Positions 11,400-46,418 of a stretch of DNA of 64,000 nt are shown in pieces; position 1 is the first letter of the stretch; each line of letters starts with the position of its first letter. A program made the position numbers and the translations under genes. The notes beneath the pieces were generated by a model. The model was given only the letters and a program-made list of their open reading frames with translations, did not search any database and was not told the origin of the DNA. Source of the stretch: Amoebophrya sp. A120 (taxonomy: Eukaryota; Protista; Dinoflagellata); contig CAJINV010000011.1 in the NCBI GenBank assembly GCA_905178155.1, positions 2,101,503 to 2,165,502 of the forward strand, in the 5' to 3' direction.

Positions 11400-12638
11400 T
11401 CACCACGAGGCCGTGCCGGTGCCCGTGTGCTCGCTGCCTGGCTTCATCCAGGTAGGGTGTTCCCAGAAGGTCTTCAGCTTGTGTGGCGGCTCGATGGTGA
11501 CTTTGCTGTCGCTGCCGACGGTAGCGAACTGGACCTCCATCGAGGCTTTGCAGTCCCGGTAGAAGAGCAGCTCCAGGCACTCGGTCGCCACCTTCTTCGC
11601 CGCCTCCAGGGTCAGGGTCTTGTATTTGCCGTATTCGCAGTGTTTCCGCAGGATCGGAATGGCCAGGTGGAGCCCGAACCCCGTCGCGATGAAGTCCTCT
11701 TCAAACGCCGTGCCCTGCAGGTCCACGTACGCCAAATGTGGCTCGCCGTGCTTCACTCCGCCGATGACCAGCTGTATAGTAGTATAAATGCATTACAAAT
11801 TTCCTCAGCATGAGAAATAAAATTTGTAATGCTGGTTTCCCTTTAAACAAAGATTTGTAATGCATAACGTGCAATACTAGTTCTAGTACCTGATTCCAGA
11901 GCGGTTTCACCTTACTCCTTCGGTTGTAGAGAACGCGACCCAAAAAGCTCGCCACTTGCTTCGGCCCCATTCGGCTGCCGTCTGTTGGAATTTAACGAAT
12001 TACAATTTTGAACTCGGAATAAAGTAAACGGAAATACGTCGGCTATTTGAATCAGATACAGCTGCACATTTCAAAAAAAGTTCTTATTGCGACCGTCGCA
12101 TGCTTGACGGTCAGTGGAAACCACGTCGAGCGCTATTATATTTGGAATTTGTAATGCTGATTTCGTTAAGGAGCAAGATTTGTCATGCTTGATTCCCTAT
12201 ATACCTTGCTCGATCCAGTCCTCTTCGTCTACGTCGCCCATGAGGTCTTTTATGTATTGGAAGTCGCTCAACTCGCCGCTGCAGCCCACCAGCGTGCAGT
12301 CCCCTACCTGCTCTATCCTTTGCACGCCGGGAAACTTCAGACTACCGCCATACGCGCACATTCGGTCGCCAGCGATAAGCACGCCATCTGTGCAAAAATT
12401 TATTTTGTGGTCGGGACACACAATTTCGCCCGCATTTCATCAATGAGCGGTTTTTATGATTGGGAAACGAGATTTTGATTTTCGTTCTTTTGCAGCGGAG
12501 TTTGTAAAGGTATGGCCATGATCGCCGCGTAGTCAACGCAGGAACATAAAACAAATAGTTGCCCCCGCAAGCACCAGTTTTTATTGTACCTTTGTATTTT
12601 AGCCCGATTATGCTGGAACCGGTGGTAATGGGGCCCAT
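11400..12638 (-). CDS. PSMB4: 20S proteasome subunit beta type-4 (beta7), 4 exons, canonical introns
   Basis: GT-AG introns 12589-12388, 12204-11982, 11889-11772. Motifs PITTGSSIIGLKYKDGVLIAGD, SGELSDFQY, LYNRRSKVKPLWNQLVIGG, IATGFGLHLAIPILR, LFYRD. Confidence 0.95.
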
Positions 12639-13662
12639 CTTTGTCGCTTTCCGCAGAAATGGTTTCTGCGCTACTTCTGTCGCTTGTCAGGAATGTGATA
12701 ACGTGGACGTGCTAGCTTCCAGAGAGGAGAAAAAATTACTCTTTCCTTAGCGATATCTGTGGTCTAGTACTGAAACTTTCGTGATCGCTAAAGAAACATA
12801 AATGTCGCTTGTGTAGTTTCGTTTGTTTTTTATACTTTTTTCGGCCTGTGGGGATGAAACAAAGAAGAATATTAGTAACACCAAGACTAACAGCTATAAA
12901 CAGTTTTTGTGCTGAACGAATTGATTCATTGTACTCATGCTGTATATGCATACAGAAAGCTGGTCGCGCGATGGATCAAGTTGTATGGTACGTGTCAGGT
13001 TCCGGATCTTTGCGTGTATCTTCTAGGTAGATAAATGTCTCCTTTTTACTTTTGTCGTTCGTGGTGTAGGGAACAGCAGCTGAAGAAGCAAGAAAAGTCG
13101 GCGCAGCTGCCAGTGAGAGCATACACGGCAGCGCGTCGCCCGTATATTCGCAGCCTGCCCACGCAGGCACAGGAGGATATTCATACTGTCAAAGAATTTT
13201 ACTGCACTTGTAGTGAAGAAGAATGTTGAGTATCCCGCAGTAGAAGGTAGTGGCAGCACGAGAAGTATTCGTCTTGCTGACCAAATATCAAATACACCTA
13301 CTTCTTTCTGATCGCCTGCTCCTGATACTAGTGTACACTTTTATTTGAGCTTTTGCAAATCCGTATACAATCTTCGGTGAGTTGTTACCAACTGTATTCT
13401 CGTACACCAAAAAGTAGACGTTTGCAGAATTTTGAGTATAATTGCGCCAAGGCAAAGTACTAGACAAGGCTTTAAGAAGAATTCAGGCACTCCTACTAAT
13501 ACTACTATCTATCATTCGCTCATCTTTAGGTTTCTCTTTTTTTCTGAGTGAATTCTTAAATACGATTTTTGTTTTGATGTTCATTTTATTCCTGTGTGGA
13601 AGTAGACAGACTACGGGATAGTTGTAGTTTTCCACGTGGATCAAAGTTGTGCATCAAGCACT

Positions 13663-16600
13663 CTATAATTGGCCCATCCCCCCAACCGGGAGCACCTCTT
13701 CCTCGTCGTAAAGCAGCATCTGCAGCGCGTCGCCCGCTGTAAAGATGCGCGTCAAAACCCCTTCGCGGTGGATATGACCCGCTCAGACGTTACAATCTCA
13801 ACTGTCACAATAGAATCTGGAAATCTGTGATGCAAGAAGTGCGTGATTTAGCCTACACCTATAGGATTGCGCATGACAAGTTTCGGAGTCCCAAACCCAC
13901 CTGAAATCCGGCAAAATTTGTATTGCGAAAAGCTCAATTCTTTCTGCGTTCCTCATGCTTTTCATGCAATACAAATTCCAGATTCTGTTGTAACGTTTGA
14001 GGTTGTAACGCTTGAGCAGGCCATAGTCGAGGAAATGGCAGGTTCCGCCGGTGTCGAACGCTACAACGGCATGCTGCTGATATGAAATGCAAAAATAAAT
14101 GTCTGGGTCTGGAAGGTCACAACTTGTGATGCTGTCTGTGGATTCAAAAAAAAACTGTGCATGACCAGCAAGAGGGGTCGGGTTTGTCCTACGTGGAGAG
14201 CGCATTTCTCATGCGGTAGAGGTATCACAAAGCCCTCTAAAGATCTGTGATGCTACGGCATGCATCACAGACATCATGACTCATGGAAAATATGCATGAC
14301 AAGTCTAGAAATCTTCCAGACCCAGACATTTTTGCATTTGATAGCTGAAATCTTATTACGATCATGTCTAAAGTGATATCTGAAGACGCGGAACAGAATT
14401 GAATTCTGTTCCGCGTCTTCCGCGCCACCGAACAAGTAACCTTCATTTTGGTATAACTATAATTTTACTAACACAACCCTCTACCGTCGGTGGGTAATGA
14501 CGTCTTGCATAGGCTCATCTTCGCCTCTTGCACGACTGTCAGACAAATCCTCTAGAAACTTGACGCAAGATTTCATCGAAACGCATCGGATACAGTTGCA
14601 GTGCGTCTTTCAGGGAGGTGACGGGGCGGTAGGACCAGCTGGTTCCCGGCATCCGCGAAGTCAGCAGGTCTCCGGTCGTCGAGGGGCCGCGGGCCGCGAC
14701 GAGAACCCCCGCCGGCATGGCGACCGGTGGATTATTTTGTTCAAAGTTTGATGTTCCTCCCGCCGCCGCGCCGAGCGTGCTGGGATCGCCCCCGAGAAGA
14801 ACCGCCTGCTGCTCGAGGGGGGTGAGCTGATGTGGGGGCTGGTTGATGTTGTTCGGCATGGTATTTCTATTTTGTTGCACGGCGGCGACAACTGCGGCTG
14901 CGCTGCCGTTCAGCTGCCCGGGCTGATGTTGCTCAGATTTATTGCCGAAGGAAGGATCTTGCGAAGAAGAAGACGATGCACCAGCTCCTGGTGTTGACAA
15001 TGTTGTTCCAGCACCACCGGCGTTGTAGTTACTGTTCCTTTCTGGAATAGTACCCCCGCCTCCCTGCGGGAAGTAGCCCAGCGTGAGGGGCGGACGCCCG
15101 CCGGGCGGGTTCACCACGGGCGGGACGGGGATGCGGCACTCGGCGGACTTGTATTGCACCATACTCCACGACAACAGCTCAATTTGACGAAAGACCTCGC
15201 CCACGGATTGCTCCATGTCGATGCGCAACCGGTGCTCTGGCAACAGCAAACCGTCGAGCGCCATCTGGAAACAGACGTCGAAGTACTGCAGCACCTGTAT
15301 CAAAAGGAAAAATCCCCCCACCCCATATCAAATGGGAAATCTGTGATGCAGGATTTGCGTACAGAAATGCGCGCTGTCTTGCAATACCGCATCGCAGCCA
15401 GATCCGCAGCCTAGGGAGGGACGTTTTGGTCTAGTTGCTTAGCATTACGAACGGCTGCCCTCTAGGCCCAACAGCATGCTAAACCGCTCCCATGATGGCA
15501 GGGAAGCCTCTGCATTTGTCTTCTTGCAAGACAGACATGATTTGTGGTCTCAAATCAGCAAGACAAATTTTCGAAAGCATGCCTTCTCGATATGGGGAGG
15601 GGGGATTTTTCCTCTCAATAACCTGCCGCCGCGAAATGGAGCCCAGCATCACCTCCGTCTGCCGGTCGATGATGGGAATGGACGAGTAGTGCTCCTCGTA
15701 GAAAAAGGTCATCAGGTGGCGAAAGGGCGTGCTGTCGCGGATTACGGTGTAGGTCGCAGACGACTGCAGGCTTTTGTCCTCGAGATGAAGAGTATTACCA
15801 CTAGAGGGACTGCTGCCACTGTTGGGGAGTGGTGCCGCTTGTTTCATCGGGCTGCTCGTGGAGGAGGACTTGTTGCCCGGATTCGTAGCTGCACTTCCAC
15901 TTCCGCCCCCGGGCATGAGCTCCTCTTTACTGGTGGACGCCGCAGTGGTCGTCTGATGAATTTTCAGAATTTATTGCTGCACGGACTTCAATAAAACGAA
16001 TCCGCTCGCTCATCGCGCCTGTAGTTGTGCCGCCTGTGAACGACCATAACTTGCGTCTAGAAAATCTAAAAATAGTACCGTGAAGAATTGTCGTGAAATA
16101 GACCCACAAATAAACCAAATACCGTCTCCGCCGTTTCCTCCGTGGCCGTGGGACTGGTGGTCTCGCTGTCCTTTTCGATTTTGTATTACAGTGAAAAACG
16201 CCCCCACCCCGAAAGTTGCAATAATTCGTGACGCGAAGCTTCCAAATGAAAACCGTTTGTCATGCATAAAAGGAGTCTGAATCTTTCTCATGCAGAGTCT
16301 AGTCGCATACAGCGGCGCTTGCATACAGCATCGCTTGCATGACAAGCGCCGCTCTTGCTGGGATCTTTTGCAACACAGTTTTTTGCTATTCACGATTGGA
16401 AATCTCTGATGCTGACACATGCAAGCGGGCGAGTGCTTCAATTGGAAAGGTTTGCAATACAAATGCTCCCAAGTTCTGCAGTGGGGGCATTTTTCCTCAC
16501 AATATTTTGTCCTGATTATTCCCTAACTCCACGACCCCCGAGGAACCGATCCCCAGCTCGGCCGACGCAGCACCAGCCTCCTTTTGCACAACATGCTGGT

Positions 16601-28120: not shown

Positions 28121-28297
28121 GAAGGTTACAGAAAAGTTGCGGGTCCATTTTTTTCGGGAGTGCTTCTGTTCGTGAATAATTCTTGCGGGTTCTCCAATAT
28201 GTAGGCCGTAGTGCGTGGCTTCCGCAGCCGTGCGCTGTCGTCAAAGAGTTGGCTCTAAGTGCTTCGTACCGCTTAACGGCGTTGCGCGCTCAAGTCA

Positions 28298-28722
28298 TTC
28301 GCACGACTGAACCGCGGCGGACCTCCTCAGTCGTTCGCACGACTTAAGCAAGGCTTTCGCACGACTTAAGCAAGGCTTTCGCACGACGTAAGGCTTTCGC
28401 ACGACTTAAGCCTTTCGCACGACTTAAGCCTTTCGCACGACTTAAGCCTTTCGCACGACTTAAGTCTTTCGCACGACTATAAGCCTTTCGCACGACTTAA
28501 AGCTTTCGCACGAGTTAAGGCTTTCGCACGACTTAAGGCTTTCGCACGACTTAAGGCTTTCGCACGACTTAAGGCTTTCGCACGACTTAAGCCTTTCGCA
28601 CGACTTAAGGCTTTCGCACGACTTAAGTTCGTAGGGTTTCTTTCGCACGACTTAAGTGCGTAGGATTAGAAGTCTTTCGCACTACTTAACTGTGTAGGGC
28701 ATGAGTCTTTCGCACGACTCAA
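28298..28722. repeat. 18-bp minisatellite (CTTTCGCACGACTTAAG[G/C])n, ~20 copies
   Basis: Direct tandem repeats between the hydrolase and DUS1 genes, degenerating at both edges. Confidence 0.95.
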
Positions 28723-29272
28723 CTGCGTGCGGCTTCTTGCGCATGAGAAAAGATGCGCAGGACTGAAGCCTTTCGCCCGACTGTACGCAAGGCCGTGATC
28801 TGTACGTCCCGCGTGGATCTTGGTTGCTATCGGTTTCGTTCTACTGAATCGCGCGAAAATTTTAAACTGATCGCTCCGTTTGGAAAGATTAAAAAGAATC
28901 AGAAGAATCTCGTGCGATCTAGTACTGCTGCGGCGAGAATATGCTCCGCGGGGTGGTCATGGTCAATAGAGAAAAGCTCATCAGGTGGATCCCCGAGATC
29001 ATTCCAAGAACCACACGACAGAGATCAAGGAGGGGAACGAAAAATAATGATGAGCAGGAAGCACTGATGTTCATGTTGCTGATCTACAACGCTTTGTGTA
29101 GATCAAAGTTTCAACGCAAAACTGAATTTCCAGGCCGCCAGTGTCAGAAGAATTATTGGAAATAGCGGCGAAGCATAAAGTTTTTGTATCAGTAGTTTCT
29201 CCTTATGAGTCGGCCTGTTCTTCTGAAGTTGAGTTCCCACCTAATAACATCTCATCACTAAGCTGCAAAATC

Positions 29273-35200: not shown

Positions 35201-37943
35201 CGCCCTTTTCTCTCTCCGCAACTTCTTCTGCGGATTTGAACGGTGACTTTTCAACATCTCACAACCGGAGGGCGGGAACGACGAACAGCTCCTCGTCGAA
35301 CAAAGCCACACAGATTATGACACTGAACAACATTTTTGTAGTTCCCCGCCTGCGCATTTGTGACGCAAAGCGCCAAATTCATTATTCCCACCCGGCTTTT
35401 AAGTAGTTTTTGCATGTCAAGTTGTTCCAGAAGCGGCTATAAAGTTGAATTGCAGTTCCTAAGTAGAAGTTTGTCATGCCGCATTCACATTTCTCGGTTG
35501 GATGTGTTTTGTGCTGCCGACGCGTTTCAAAGCAGGAGACGGGAAAGTTGTCCGCTACCATACGAACCCCCACCAGCACGGAGAATGACCACTCGTTGGA
35601 GCTGCCATTAAATTCGCGTAAGCACCACACGAACAGCGGGCAGATGCTTGCGGCAGCAGCAGCAACATCCGGGAGGGCGGCCGCGGGCCCAACTACCTCT
35701 TCTTCGCAGCACAAGAGAGGGAGCACGGCCACGACCGTGAAGAGCGCGTACACTACGATAGAGAACGAAACGGTCGGAGCGGCAGGAGGGTTGTACTACA
35801 ACAACTCTGGAACAACGACAAGCCCGAGCAAACCCACTCTGCGCGGTATCATCAGCAAAACGAGGTCCGAGTTCAAGCCCACAGCGGGGTTGTTCGGCAC
35901 CGACGGAGCAGGAGGTGCCCTTGGCGGTCCAGAACAACTACCGCAGCAACAAAACACTACCTCGGCCACCCGCGCTGCGAGCCACTCCAACGTCGCTACC
36001 ATCTCTGGCACAACGGTAACAAACACGGAGAAGCATTCGCTGGCTACGCTGCGTGCCGCAGCGGCAAAGCGGAGTCAGAGCCATAACAGGAACAACAATG
36101 CTCGGAATAGTGAGCAGATGACTTCGAGCAAGGAGGAGGAGTGTGGGTCTCGGAATTCTTCGACCAACACCTCGCGTGGGGGCCGGATTTTCCCGGCAGA
36201 CAGTGCCAGTAATATCCCAGAGTCCTCCGACGACCAGGAACAGAACTATTTGAGTAGCAAGGAGAAAACGAACAGTTACGACGAGCTCGGGGAAAACCAA
36301 CTGTGGAAAGACGCACGGGCACGAATGGAGCGGAGGGATTTGGAGTTGCAGTTGTTTCACCCACCAAGCTCCTCCTCTGTCGGGGAGAAGACGCATACGG
36401 TGACCACCGTGTCCAAACCGGAGTTGCGAGCGGTTCCTGCGACTGGCGAGGACGACGTGCAAAATGCTGAACACGAGAGAAGTGTTTCTCTTGCTGTTGT
36501 GCGGGGGCAACAGGAGGGGGCACATCAGCCACGCGGGAACAACGAGCCGAGCCTCGTGCCGAGAAAAAGCCAGAACTACCTCATCAATCCTGACCGTTTG
36601 CAAGTGCAAGACCCGCTCCTCGATTGGCACCAGCGCTGGGAGGCCGTGGAGCAGGAAGAGCTGCGCTTGCCCCTGGAGGCGGTAGCGCAGATATTGCGAG
36701 CAAAAATCCCCCCTCCCCATATCAAAGCGAAATTTCTGATGCTGGGTTTGCGTACACAAATCAGCCTTGTCTTGCAGTAGGGGAGTGCAGGCCCATGGCA
36801 AGCCTGAGCGGAGAGGTTTTGGCGTAGGCGCTCACCATGACAAAAGTCTATGCTGTAGGCCCAACAGCATCACAAACCGCTGGCATAATGCGGGAAGTCT
36901 CCTGGGCTTGCCTTCTTGCAAGACAGACGCGATTTGTGACCACAAATAAGCATCACAAATTTCCAAAAATATACCTTTTCAATGTGGGGAGGGGGGATTT
37001 TTCCTTTCGATAGCAGAGAAGAGACCTTCATGCTCATCATCTGGAGCAACGAGACGTTTTGCAGCACAAGGCCGCGCCTTACCCTCGACAGCACGCCACG
37101 CCAGCTGGTCATGATTCTCATCACGGCGCCGCGCCTGCGAACAATGTGAACTACTCGGGTCGTGAGCAGCCGCAGCAGCAGAGACAGGAACACAGCAAGC
37201 ACAAAAACTTTGAACAGAACAAGCACTATCGCCCGCCGATGGATGGAGAGAACTACCCGGTTGTGATGGTGTCTTCATCATCTTCACGGGGGAAAACCAG
37301 CAGCGGAAATGGTACAACTGTTAAACACCCTGCTCCGCATCCAGGTACGGTGACCACCCCGAAATTCTCTATGCGGCTGGACGATTACAAGCCGGGCGGA
37401 CCCCTGAATCCCTCTCCGCGGGCCATGTTTTTCGGGGAAGTGGCAGGTCCTCGGACGAACAGGGTGGAAGAGGTACTTTAGTAGAGCCTCCTCAGCAGTT
37501 ACACTCTCAACTGTTACTCCACGTTGTCATGCAAAATTTGCGCCACATTTTCTTTTTCATCAAGCAACGCATCACAATGTTTGCAGGTGGCACCTCCTCC
37601 GACCAACATCGTCGAAGTGGAAATTCAAAGTGCAACCTTTTCGACTTCCCGGCCAGTACCTGCAAGTAGCCATGCCAAACACCACCACAGTACAACCAGC
37701 CGTGGCGCGGCTACTAGTGCAACAGCGTCGATGAAAGAGAAGCCAAAGGGGGACAAATTTGGCAAAGCATCTGCACAACACGCCGTTGTTGCAGGGCAAG
37801 GACAGCAGCAGCTGCATTCGCGCGTTCCCTCGTCCGACGTCGGGACGCCGAAGGCTTTGGAGCTCATTGAGGATTTTCGCTTTCGATTTTCTATTCCGGC
37901 GTCACCAGCGGCACGGGGTAGCAACAATGGGGGCCTGCCGTAA
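32264..37943 (+). CDS. Long multi-exon low-complexity (S/T/N/Q-rich) hypothetical protein
   Basis: Chain of same-strand ORFs (32264-, 33762-, 34581-, 35026-, 35476-, 37059-, 37524-37943) joined in frame across introners 34837 and 36692. Other junctions are unresolved, so this could be more than one gene. Confidence 0.55.
34837..35012. mobile_element. Introner, family F4
   Basis: TATGCGAGTGCACA ... TGTGCACAACTCGCATA; TSD CTCCG/CTCGG. Removal restores NSDRRVY. Confidence 0.9.
36692..37012. mobile_element. Introner, family F3
   Basis: TATTGCGAGCAAAAATCCCCCCTCCCCA ... TGGGGAGGGGGGATTTTTCCTTTCGATA; perfect TSD GCAGA. Confidence 0.95.
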
Positions 37944-43277: not shown

Positions 43278-44513
43278 ATGACGTTTCGTCGCAGCGCCAC
43301 GACTTTTGCCACCCTGAGCCGCCGGCTCTCAACCTCCTCCTCTCGAGGTGGAGCGACATCCGGTTTGGCTGCAGCAGTAGCCGGACGTGCAACTGCCGGG
43401 AGTTTGCATTCGCTTGCAAAGAACGTGGCAGTGGGGAGGTCCTTTCAGGCGACCTCGGCGGGACTTTCTCTCTTATCCAAAAACGACATCACGACTACAC
43501 CAGCAGCCGTCCAGCAACGGTGCTTTTCCGCCGCCGCTTCCGGGAAAACGGAAGAGACGCTGCTCGACGCGGTGAGCAAACATCTGAAGGACCGAATCGA
43601 GGACGTGAAAAAGGAGATGGAGGAAACCAACGCCGTATGAATTGCAATAGCATCGCACTTTAGTAGTAGAAATCGCATGACAAATTTCCGCAGCATAAGA
43701 AATGAAATTTGTAATGCGTTCTTAATAGCTTCAGAGAAGAATTTTTGTCATGCGTGATTGCGATCACCCTACGAGTGCGATGCTTTGGCAATGCATACGT
43801 TCCGAAGGAGAAGCTCGCGGCGCAGTTGGAATCTTTGCAGAAGCCCGTCACGATCAGCACGACGTGGGATGCCCTCGGGTTTGACGAGTTCGACCGGGTG
43901 GAAGTGTTGCTAGAGGTGGAAGAGGCGTATGGATTGCAAATATGTGACGGTCTGGAAAGTTGCAACTTGTGCTGCAGTCTTTGGACTCGAAAAAAATCTG
44001 TATTGCATGACCACCAAGAGGAGACCAGTTTGTGCTACGCGGAGAGGGCCGCGTTTGTCATGCGGAATGGGCAGCAGAAAGCCCGAAAAAAATCTGTGAT
44101 GCTCGGTCATGCACATTACAGGCATCATGGGTCACGGAAGACCTGCATGGTAAAGTCTTGCATTTCTCCAGAACGCCACACATGTTTGCAGTGGATAAAG
44201 CGTTTGGGGTCACGATTCCGGACGAGGAGGCGGACGCGATCGGGTCGGTGAAAGAGACACTGGACTGGCTGGAAAAAATATCCTGAGAAAAAAGTGTTAC
44301 AGTTACACATTGTGTTGCAGGCCAAGCAAGACAGACGAGCTCTGTGATGCCGGATGTGCATAGGAGCCTCCTTTCATAGCTGTTTTCCCGTAGGATTTCT
44401 GCATCGCAAGTTTTCTCTCTCATGCAGAGAAATTTGTGTTGCTGAATTGACAACAAATGTGTAACTGTAACACTTTTTTCGTGCGATAAAAAAACTTGGA
44501 AACCAAAGAATGA
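43278..44513 (+). CDS. Divergent mitochondrial acyl carrier protein, 4 exons split by 3 introners
   Basis: R/S/A-rich presequence ending QQRCFS. ACP core LGFDEFDRVEVLLEVEEAFGVTIPDEEADAIGSVKETLDWL. Stop TGA 44511-44513. Confidence 0.88.
43636..43797. mobile_element. Short introner
   Basis: TATGAATTGCAATAGCATCGCACT ... AGTGCGATGCTTTGGCAATGCATA; TSD eroded (CGCCG/CGTTC). Frame is restored on removal. Confidence 0.88.
43928..44197. mobile_element. Introner, family F1 (diverged)
   Basis: TATGGATTGCAAATATGTGACGGTCTGGA ... TCCAGAACGCCACACATGTTTGCAGTGGATA; TSD AGGCG/AAGCG. Confidence 0.92.
44279..44488. mobile_element. Introner, family F6
   Basis: TATCCTGAGAAAAAAGTGTTACAGTTACACATT ... AATGTGTAACTGTAACACTTTTTTCGTGCGATA; TSD AAAAA. 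Confidence 0.93.
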
Positions 44514-45220: not shown

Positions 45221-46418
45221 ATGAGCATCAACCCCACCCTGGCGGAGGACCAGGTCACCAAGGAGCTCTTCCCCCTCCCCCGTCCCGGCGAGGTTTTCAT
45301 CCTCAAACGCGAGAACATTTTTTTCGAGTCCGCGTCCAGGAAAGCAAGATGCAAGGCACTGGGGCTGTTCATGCTGTCCTCCCAGCGGTTTGTGTTTGTT
45401 GCCCAGAAGGACAAAAATAACGAGGATATAACCCTCTCAGGTGTTACAATCTCAAACGTTGCAATAGAATCTGGAAATCTGTAATGCAAGAACTGCATGA
45501 TCTAGCCTACGCCAATAAGATTGCGCATGACAAGTTTCGGAGTCCCAAACCCACCTGAAATCTGGCGAAATTTGTATTGCGAAAAGCTCAGTTCTCTATA
45601 CGTTCCTCATGCTCTTCATGCAATACAAAATCCAGATTCTATCGTAACGTTCGAGATTGTAACGTTTGAGCGGGCCATAGAGGATTTTGGCAGTTTCGAG
45701 ATTCCGATGGACAGTATTCTGAAGCAGGAATTTATGCAAGAAAAAAACTGTGTAAGTGTAACTCTGTAATGCACAAAGTGCAAAACTGTTACACCTGTCA
45801 TGCCAGACAACCACGCAGTCCTCTTTTCATGTGTGTTTTCTCTTGTAAGCCACGCATGACAGGATTTCTCTGTCATGTAGAGCAAATTTGTGATGCTGTC
45901 AGCCAAAGAAAGTTACACTAACACAGTTTTTTTCTCGGATAGAATTCCAGCAGCCCATCTTCGGCTGCAACTACCTCGAACTGCAGGTCACCAGCACGGA
46001 CCCGAGCATCACGGGCGACACCAATTTCCCGATTTACCTCTACTTCTACGAGGGTGGTGCGGGCACCTTTCTGCAGGTGTTTTTCAAGTTCTTCGTGGAG
46101 GTACAGCGGCGGCGCGGCGAGGCGAACAGCCAAAACGGGTTAGCGCAGGTGGCCGTGCAGTTAGTGAATAACCGGCACGCCTACGTCGACCGGAGCGACC
46201 CGTCGACCTTCTACCTGCAGCAGCCACAGACTGCTGGCGCGGCGGGAGAGAATGTCGATCGGTCAACAGCGACGGAGCAGGAGGGCACAGACATCGGGCA
46301 TGTAGGCGGTGGTGGTCCGAGTGGTTCGGGGGGAGAGCAAGAAGTGCCTAATACTGCGTTTCCCGGGACAACAAGTGGAGCGTTTCCCGGGCGAGGACAT
46401 GTGTTGGGGGACAGTTGA
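45221..46418 (+). CDS. WW-domain-binding protein 2-like (GRAM/PH-like) protein, 3 exons split by 2 introners
   Basis: MSINP start, GLFMLSSQRFVFV, FGSFEIPM, EFQQPIFGCNYL, LYFYEGGAGTF, AYVDRSDPSTFYLQQP. Confidence 0.85.
45427..45679. mobile_element. Introner, family F5
   Basis: Perfect TSD GAGGA. 253 bp, close copy of 13773-14025. Confidence 0.96.
45733..45941. mobile_element. Introner, family F6
   Basis: TATGCAAGAAAAAAACTGTGTAAGTGTAACT ... AGTTACACTAACACAGTTTTTTTCTCGGATA; perfect TSD GAATT. Confidence 0.95.

Follow-up and report, generated by a model that had tools for sequence, protein, structure and literature searches.

A GT-AG intron in the PSMB4 gene of Amoebophrya sp. A120 as a probable end-trimmed copy of a 149-nt introner

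How Amoebophrya removes the 60% of its introns that are non-canonical, and what becomes of them, is an open question. The parts of Farhat 2021 (PMC7789003) drawn on here describe the IEs of strain A120 as having an inverted repeat of 8-20 nt that starts with TAT and joins the intron ends, direct repeats of 3-5 nt and non-canonical ends. They also report that A120 introns conserved with A25 amount to 19.4%, of which 98.6% are canonical, that A120-specific intron positions are 24.8% canonical, that introners are rarer in core genes and that U1 snRNA was not detected in A120. Among the A120 rows consulted in Gozashti 2025 (PMC12130899), fam17 (supplementary file 8, row 560) comprises 372 introns of 149 bp with a TIR of 25; its donors are GT (96), GC (11), GA (19), AT (75) or other (171), and AG is the acceptor in 105 of the 372.

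Here we analyse the third intron of the A120 PSMB4 gene, an ordinary-looking GT-AG intron within a window of 64,000 nucleotides (the whole stretch of DNA analysed). An introner origin of this intron is strongly supported. Its interior belongs to a high-copy family of TIR-bearing introners, and the outer parts of both TIRs are missing from it (Table 1).

Table 1. Coordinates in the window of the PSMB4 gene, its introns and the related elements
Feature	Position	Strand	Description
PSMB4 (proteasome beta-7) gene	11400..12638	-	exons 12590-12638, 12205-12387, 11890-11981, 11400-11771
PSMB4 intron 1	12388..12589	-	202 nt, phase 1, GT-AG; without trace of the family, serves as internal negative control
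PSMB4 intron 2	11982..12204	-	223 nt, codon 78, phase 1, GT-AG; the 149-nt introner family is traceable, more weakly, in its 5' part (12146-12197)
PSMB4 intron 3	11772..11889	-	118 nt, phase 0 after codon 108 (Gln/Leu), GT-AG; TIR-trimmed introner copy
5' end of intron 3 with GT donor	11878..11889	-	first 12 nt, at the place of the inner TIR; 8/11 to inner TIR
Hairpin core	11790..11832		43 nt, 43/43 to consensus, two inverted copies of the 9-bp motif; -15.8 kcal/mol, z -5.9
3' end of intron 3	11772..11781	-	last 10 nt: inner-TIR remnant, then AG acceptor
Candidate second TIR-less GT-AG intron	37473..37586	+	114 nt, predicted only; frame-preserving removal
Intact, more diverged family copy	43636..43797	+	162 nt, 24-nt TIRs, target duplication 2/5; in acyl-carrier-protein-domain gene

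The four PSMB4 exons, when joined, reproduce the annotated A120 protein P0001, which matches the last exon at 100%, and matches to PDB structures name the product proteasome beta type-4 / PRE4. The annotated start (12636-12638) lies about seven residues later than in the homologues, which open with an HTxQP-like stretch. All three introns are skipped, at the boundaries given in Table 1, by one contig of run X3 (depth 16), and each reads CT..AC on the plus strand, that is, GT-AG on the minus strand. The splice evidence is this single assembled contig, and the RNA status of X3 is only a tool's guess. None of the three joints is present in the DNA run X1, and the three pieces of metatranscriptome X8 that lie over PSMB4 hold no joint. 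Because CAG is repeated at its borders, the joint of intron 3 has a slack of 3 nt, and one placement gives GT-AG; the ordinary GT/CAG ends attributed to this intron by an earlier, sequence-only reading of the window are borne out. Removal of intron 3 restores the reading frame, as in a canonical U2-type intron, and the protein at the junction is collinear with 21 homologues, with no insertion or indel at the site. An Rfam search of 11700-12650 (E up to 1) returned no family, so the PSMB4 introns show no indication of harbouring a snoRNA or another known RNA. Orthologous PSMB4 loci were sought in viral and prokaryote collections; of 69 and 56 pattern matches, none was confirmed.

The introner origin had been proposed from a match between 11790-11832 and 43675-43717, inside the family copy that starts at 43636. 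We recovered the same 39 identities over 43 nt, and offsets of 1-3 nt gave only 11-14. The proposed upstream extension also holds: with the TAGTAGTA stretch, the local match reaches 57 nt at 89.5% identity (E 5e-16 within the window). Scored against the 28 elements of the window, intron 3 reaches 82 with 43636-43797, 39 with the next best and a median of 24. The comparison with motif-rich shuffles that the same reading had put forward was run, and none of 5,000 motif-kept shuffles reached 82 (maximum 64), which rules out a match due to chance or to motif content only. An HMM of the family gives intron 3 87.5 bits (E 2.6e-26) over model positions 22-127 of 149.

The consensus of 20 copies describes TAT...ATA elements of about 149 nt that end in TIRs of 25 nt and are flanked by target duplications of 5 bp. 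When metagenome contigs were searched for the core, 21 loci emerged, which share one accession prefix and belong to another assembly. In twenty of these the element is complete and measures 144-171 nt, its target duplication agreeing at 5/5 positions in 12 loci, at 4/5 in 7 and at 3/5 in 1; L014, in which the right end is missing, was left out of the family alignment, for which 20 of the 21 were used. These reference members were selected by a near-exact core, and so core identity among them is inflated. Six further copies, found in flanks and not selected by their core, have TIRs that match at 18-24 of 25 positions, cores that match at 33-41 of 43 and perfect duplications in five of the six cases. 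These loci contain 12 further strong matches, nine of which lie clear of a locus edge, and all nine end in TIRs. No copy that lacks both TIRs was found among about 30 in this other assembly. Two copies (L003:1401-1497 and L014:968-1099) are one-ended and a third (L016:1245-1428) lacks a target duplication and has GT at its left border; these are possible intermediates. The family is probably fam17, a match by length and TIR length only that drew on 19 of the 58 A120 rows plus length matches in supplementary file 8, in which fam60, fam92 and fam36 have similar lengths. Three short core motifs had no match in the 12 of 14 Gozashti 2025 supplementary files searched.

DNA run X1 places 2,451 contigs on 11400-12700, about 2,400 of them on PSMB4 introns and nearly all of these at intron 3. 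Summed depth is 743,976 at 11796-11839, 5,673 at 12148-12191 and 40-42 on exons, which is to be read only as high-copy and not as a copy number. The pile-up of other copies stops at about 11782 and 11865. Among the X1 pieces listed, the loose ends at 11782 run on into the family TIR and the longest foreign piece covers 11776-11865. The exact core is absent from viral contigs.

Intron 3 aligns end to end with the element minus the outer 14 nt on each side. Identity to the consensus is 88% over the interior (80-95% for the 20 members) and 79% over the non-core interior (66-91%). As the sequence-only reading had stated, there is no intact TIR: the outer 14 nt of each TIR are gone (0/14), the inner parts match at 7/11 and 8/11, and the intron ends still pair weakly. 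When the flanks were included in a gapped alignment, exon bases matched the outer TIRs at 7/14 and 9/14 (no control). The intron is shorter than the element, which measures 144-171 nt, and at most about 12 nt at its 5' end and 2-10 nt at its 3' end are not clearly element-derived. The inner-TIR match of the 3' end is equalled by only 4 of 432 AT-rich controls. At the 5' end, 129 of 456 AT-rich GTA starts score equally well, and this end resembles other GTAC-starting donors in the window. Because the match of this end to the inner TIR is at chance level and the end looks like other donors, the donor of intron 3 could be older than the element. The direct repeat at the borders is CAG only, without a full 5-bp duplication; the final CAG, which repeats the end of the upstream exon, is possibly a remnant of a target duplication ATCAG, and CAG is also the usual proto-splice pattern. 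Folding energy is halved, at -26.8 kcal/mol (z -3.6) versus about -54 (z -8) in two intact members. The end stem beats 1,483 of 1,500 random pairs, yet at a score of 12 it exceeds only slightly the 10 of intron 1, in which the family has left no trace. Measured against the definition of an intact IE (Farhat 2021), intron 3 lacks both the TAT-starting inverted repeat that joins the ends, of which there is an imperfect inner stem only, and the non-canonical ends.

The term fossil, which the sequence-only reading had used for intron 3, overstates its age. Its interior is as near to the consensus as that of intact copies and nearer than that of the 43636 copy (88% vs 81%). The intron is probably recently trimmed rather than ancient, and it is not evenly decayed, the damage being confined to its ends. 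Its TIRs match at 7/25 and 8/25 beside a core at 43/43, whereas ordinary copies keep their TIRs better than their interiors. Since the six copies not selected by core show this reverse pattern, the loss in intron 3 is specific to the ends.

We consider it probable, although well short of certain, that intron 3 is a copy of the high-copy 149-nt TIR introner minus the outer 14 nt of both TIRs, which was non-canonical at the start and was turned into a GT-AG intron by short deletions at its ends. That GT-AG was gained, as had been claimed, and gained after insertion is the best reading, for the 43636 copy is non-canonical by the annotated protein of its gene and no 5-bp target at PSMB4 gives GT-AG. 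That protein, P0023, is reproduced only by cutting 167 nt (the element + 5) at 43636, with CG-GT or GT-TT ends, a non-canonical removal that comes from the annotation of P0023 and not from reads; for the second element of the same gene (43928), comparison with P0023 gave no fitting removal. Six 5-bp targets are possible at the empty PSMB4 site; exact removal yields neither GT-AG nor GC-AG with any of them, and TA-AG with ATCAG. GT-AG at birth requires a G after the AG, which makes the next residue Val; none of 22 homologues has Val at this position (Leu in 20, Phe in 2). We also rejected the use of an inner AG or inner GT of the element at insertion: by counting, this would add 10-25 nt to the exon, out of frame, but the protein is collinear with its homologues.

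The proposed series of events would begin with a cut-and-paste element that inserted at the Gln/Leu junction, most simply with duplication of ATCAG. Initially, the element plus one target copy would have been removed, as for other A120 introners, with TA-AG ends, the target duplication having supplied the AG. If the first 14 nt were then lost, the GTAT with which the inner TIR starts would have come to lie next to the exon and served as a GT donor, with the frame unchanged; 14 of the 20 members, read in the orientation of intron 3, have GT at TIR position 15, where the inner TIR starts and intron 3 begins. With GT-AG splicing in place, there would have been no further need for the long stem between the ends, and the TIR on the 3' side, which contained a competing inner AG, could have been deleted. 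The intron ends may subsequently have drifted toward the host donor pattern, and the copy would now be immobile. The likely driver is selection on an essential gene to be spliced efficiently. The second remnant, near the GT of intron 2, agrees with this reading, as do the Farhat 2021 figures on A120-specific positions (24.8% canonical) and on core genes, where introners are rarer. Intron 3 would thus likely catch a non-canonical transposon intron soon after its switch to normal splice sites.

The uncertain origin of the donor bears on another reading, in which the element entered an existing GT-AG intron at an old position and deletions took the outer TIRs together with nearly all of the old intron, leaving its donor and acceptor. 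This agrees with the first 12 nt of intron 3, which resemble the TIR no more than other GTA starts do and are similar to host donors, and with the estimate from the figures of Farhat 2021 that about half of the A120 canonical introns are at A25-shared positions, and more in conserved genes; intron 2, in which about 160 nt of unrelated sequence lie beside the remnant, fits it well. For intron 3, however, two deletions are needed that left at most 12 nt of the old intron on each side and came to a halt at the inner TIRs on both sides alike; moreover, its 3' end resembles the inner TIR (only 4/432 controls are as good) and the whole intron is shorter than the element alone. We regard this course of events as rather unlikely. 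A pristine core beside altered ends would also be the expected outcome of later gene conversion from intact copies. Intron 3 might then be an older insertion with long-eroded ends and an interior refreshed in this way, or else a copy of a short-ended subfamily or an interior captured during repair, and in none of these cases a step-wise convert. Next to the core at 43/43, the inner TIRs carry three or more TCG-to-TAG or CGA-to-CTA changes, on matching arms; among 26 copies, this change is found at just one of the four sites (8/26), which counts in favour of such histories. But no second copy with the ends of intron 3 appears among the listed X1 pieces, and short ends on both sides occur in none of the 21 pattern-found copies, so that we hold this group of histories to be improbable.

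Splicing as GT-AG from birth, with the duplicated target supplying AG and G as in Aureococcus-type introners and the TIRs decaying afterwards, is the reading to which we give very little credence. It would be within reach of the family, in that exact removal could give GT/GC-AG in 4 of the 20 intact members, on one strand; that only these four could be cut so, on either strand, counts among the points for conversion. It also agrees with the parts of Farhat 2021 (PMC7789003) in which 15% of A120 canonical introns have both an inverted and a direct repeat, and with the GT donors (96/372) and AG acceptors (105/372) of fam17 (Gozashti 2025, PMC12130899). At PSMB4 itself, the required Val in 0/22 homologues and the 0/6 targets that give GT-AG speak against it, and neutral decay leaves an intact interior beside destroyed ends unexplained.

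The more general claim, that introners mature into conventional introns, fared less evenly. Intron 3 is a clear case, but as a rule the claim has otherwise two weak cases in the window and none among the about 30 copies of the other assembly; because none of those copies has lost both TIRs, conversion is at most uncommon among recognisable copies. The remnant in intron 2 comprises 52 nt near the donor, in the same orientation as in intron 3 (HMM 22.5 bits, E 2.5e-6); 0 of 5,000 motif-kept shuffles reach its score against the consensus, and 63 of 5,000 do so against the 43636 copy. Intron 1 scores just 17-25 against the 20 family members. The candidate intron at 37473-37586 follows, in collinear fashion, the left half of a different introner family, which has copies at 13773-14025 and 45427-45679. 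Its global score of 35 against the chosen element exceeds the maximum of 32 in 2,000 shuffles, and 21 of 300 shuffles reach its best local score over all elements. A wider path is conceivable but doubtful: non-canonical splicing may need TIRs, so that selection keeps them, and a gain of GT-AG, helped by the GT inside the inner TIR and the AG from the target duplication, would free an introner to shed its TIRs fast. Such a path would be routine and one-way, would run mostly in essential genes and would be the source of much of A120's lineage-specific GT-AG introns.

A pair of motifs 31 bp apart had been noted in both intron 2 (12147, 12178) and intron 3 (11822, 11853). Both pairs are present, but the spacing is generic, a same-strand pair 30-33 bp apart being found in 12 of 27 elements of other families; it marks introner origin in general. 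A special duplication between intron 2 and intron 3 was rejected, since intron 2 is equally close to family members and to intron 3. The 9-bp motif concerned, YTGTNATGC, has 94 sites in the window (2191 to 61340) versus 3.8 expected, and occurs in all 27 other TIR elements, across unrelated families. Of 49 same-strand pairs, 14 lie 30-33 bp (about three helical turns) apart, versus 1.4 by random placement, and the motif often lies 30-55 bp inside an element end. A transposase or host protein likely binds this shared site; the parts of the literature covered here do not describe it. The window contains about 28 TAT...ATA elements (4412-60416), and in most of them 5-bp target duplications directly abut the ends, which exceeds the 4 nt that predominate in published A120 work. 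At about 2100-2375, a member of the 4786/34837 family has its right TIR, but TIR scans found no left end to match it. Two tandem arrays were also observed, a GC-rich one at 1-1900 with units of about 100 nt, each with a partly palindromic 45-nt segment, and one at 28290-28780 with an 18-nt unit.

A young interior with destroyed ends, beside TIR-intact copies, allows a direct genome-wide test of the need for TIRs in splicing: if they are needed for non-canonical splicing, TIR loss is expected only in GT-AG copies. Intron 3 also offers an origin for A120-specific canonical introns left unexplained in the parts of Farhat 2021 (PMC7789003) considered. Introner counts based on inverted repeats miss some transposon-made introns and are undercounts.

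In the parts of the literature covered, the 149-nt family resembles the Amoebophrya IEs of Farhat 2021 in its TAT inverted repeats, direct repeats at the borders, lack of coding capacity, many copies and mostly non-canonical ends; its target duplications are of 5 bp, compared with 3-5 nt, most often 4, in the published A120 work. Intron 3 differs from these IEs in having neither a TIR nor a full target duplication and, lacking a TIR, would therefore be missed by definitions of introners based on inverted repeats. Of the canonical introns in Farhat 2021, 15% keep the inverted and direct repeats, and sections 11, 12 and 16 of that work do not report TIR-less converts with introner interiors. Conversion of a non-canonical introner to GT-AG in Amoebophrya was not found in the literature covered, which included 12 of the 14 Gozashti 2025 supplements. 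That introners age into ordinary introns has already been published for fungi, which makes the idea less surprising; the switch of class from non-canonical to GT-AG in Amoebophrya is what we did not find described. In the parts of Collemare 2013 (PMC3609843) consulted, the fungal introner-like elements are, like the family of intron 3, multi-copy structured introns that shorten, lose fold stability and turn ordinary-looking. They have normal splice signals from the start and fade throughout, whereas the A120 family is mostly non-canonical and the change of splice class is concentrated at the ends. The euglenid intermediate introns, as covered from Milanowski 2016 (PMC4770533), are MITE-like and non-conventional with pairing ends, and one GC-AG case was proposed as a possible conversion to a conventional intron. 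That case keeps its end structure and is not linked to a high-copy family, whereas intron 3 has lost its TIRs and shares its genome with abundant copies of the parent family. Introns of Fritillaria borealis, as far as covered from a review (PMC11282704), likewise combine TIRs and TSDs with non-canonical splicing and species-specific positions. There, GT-AG introns are the old conserved class, whereas intron 3 would be a young GT-AG intron that arose from the non-canonical class.
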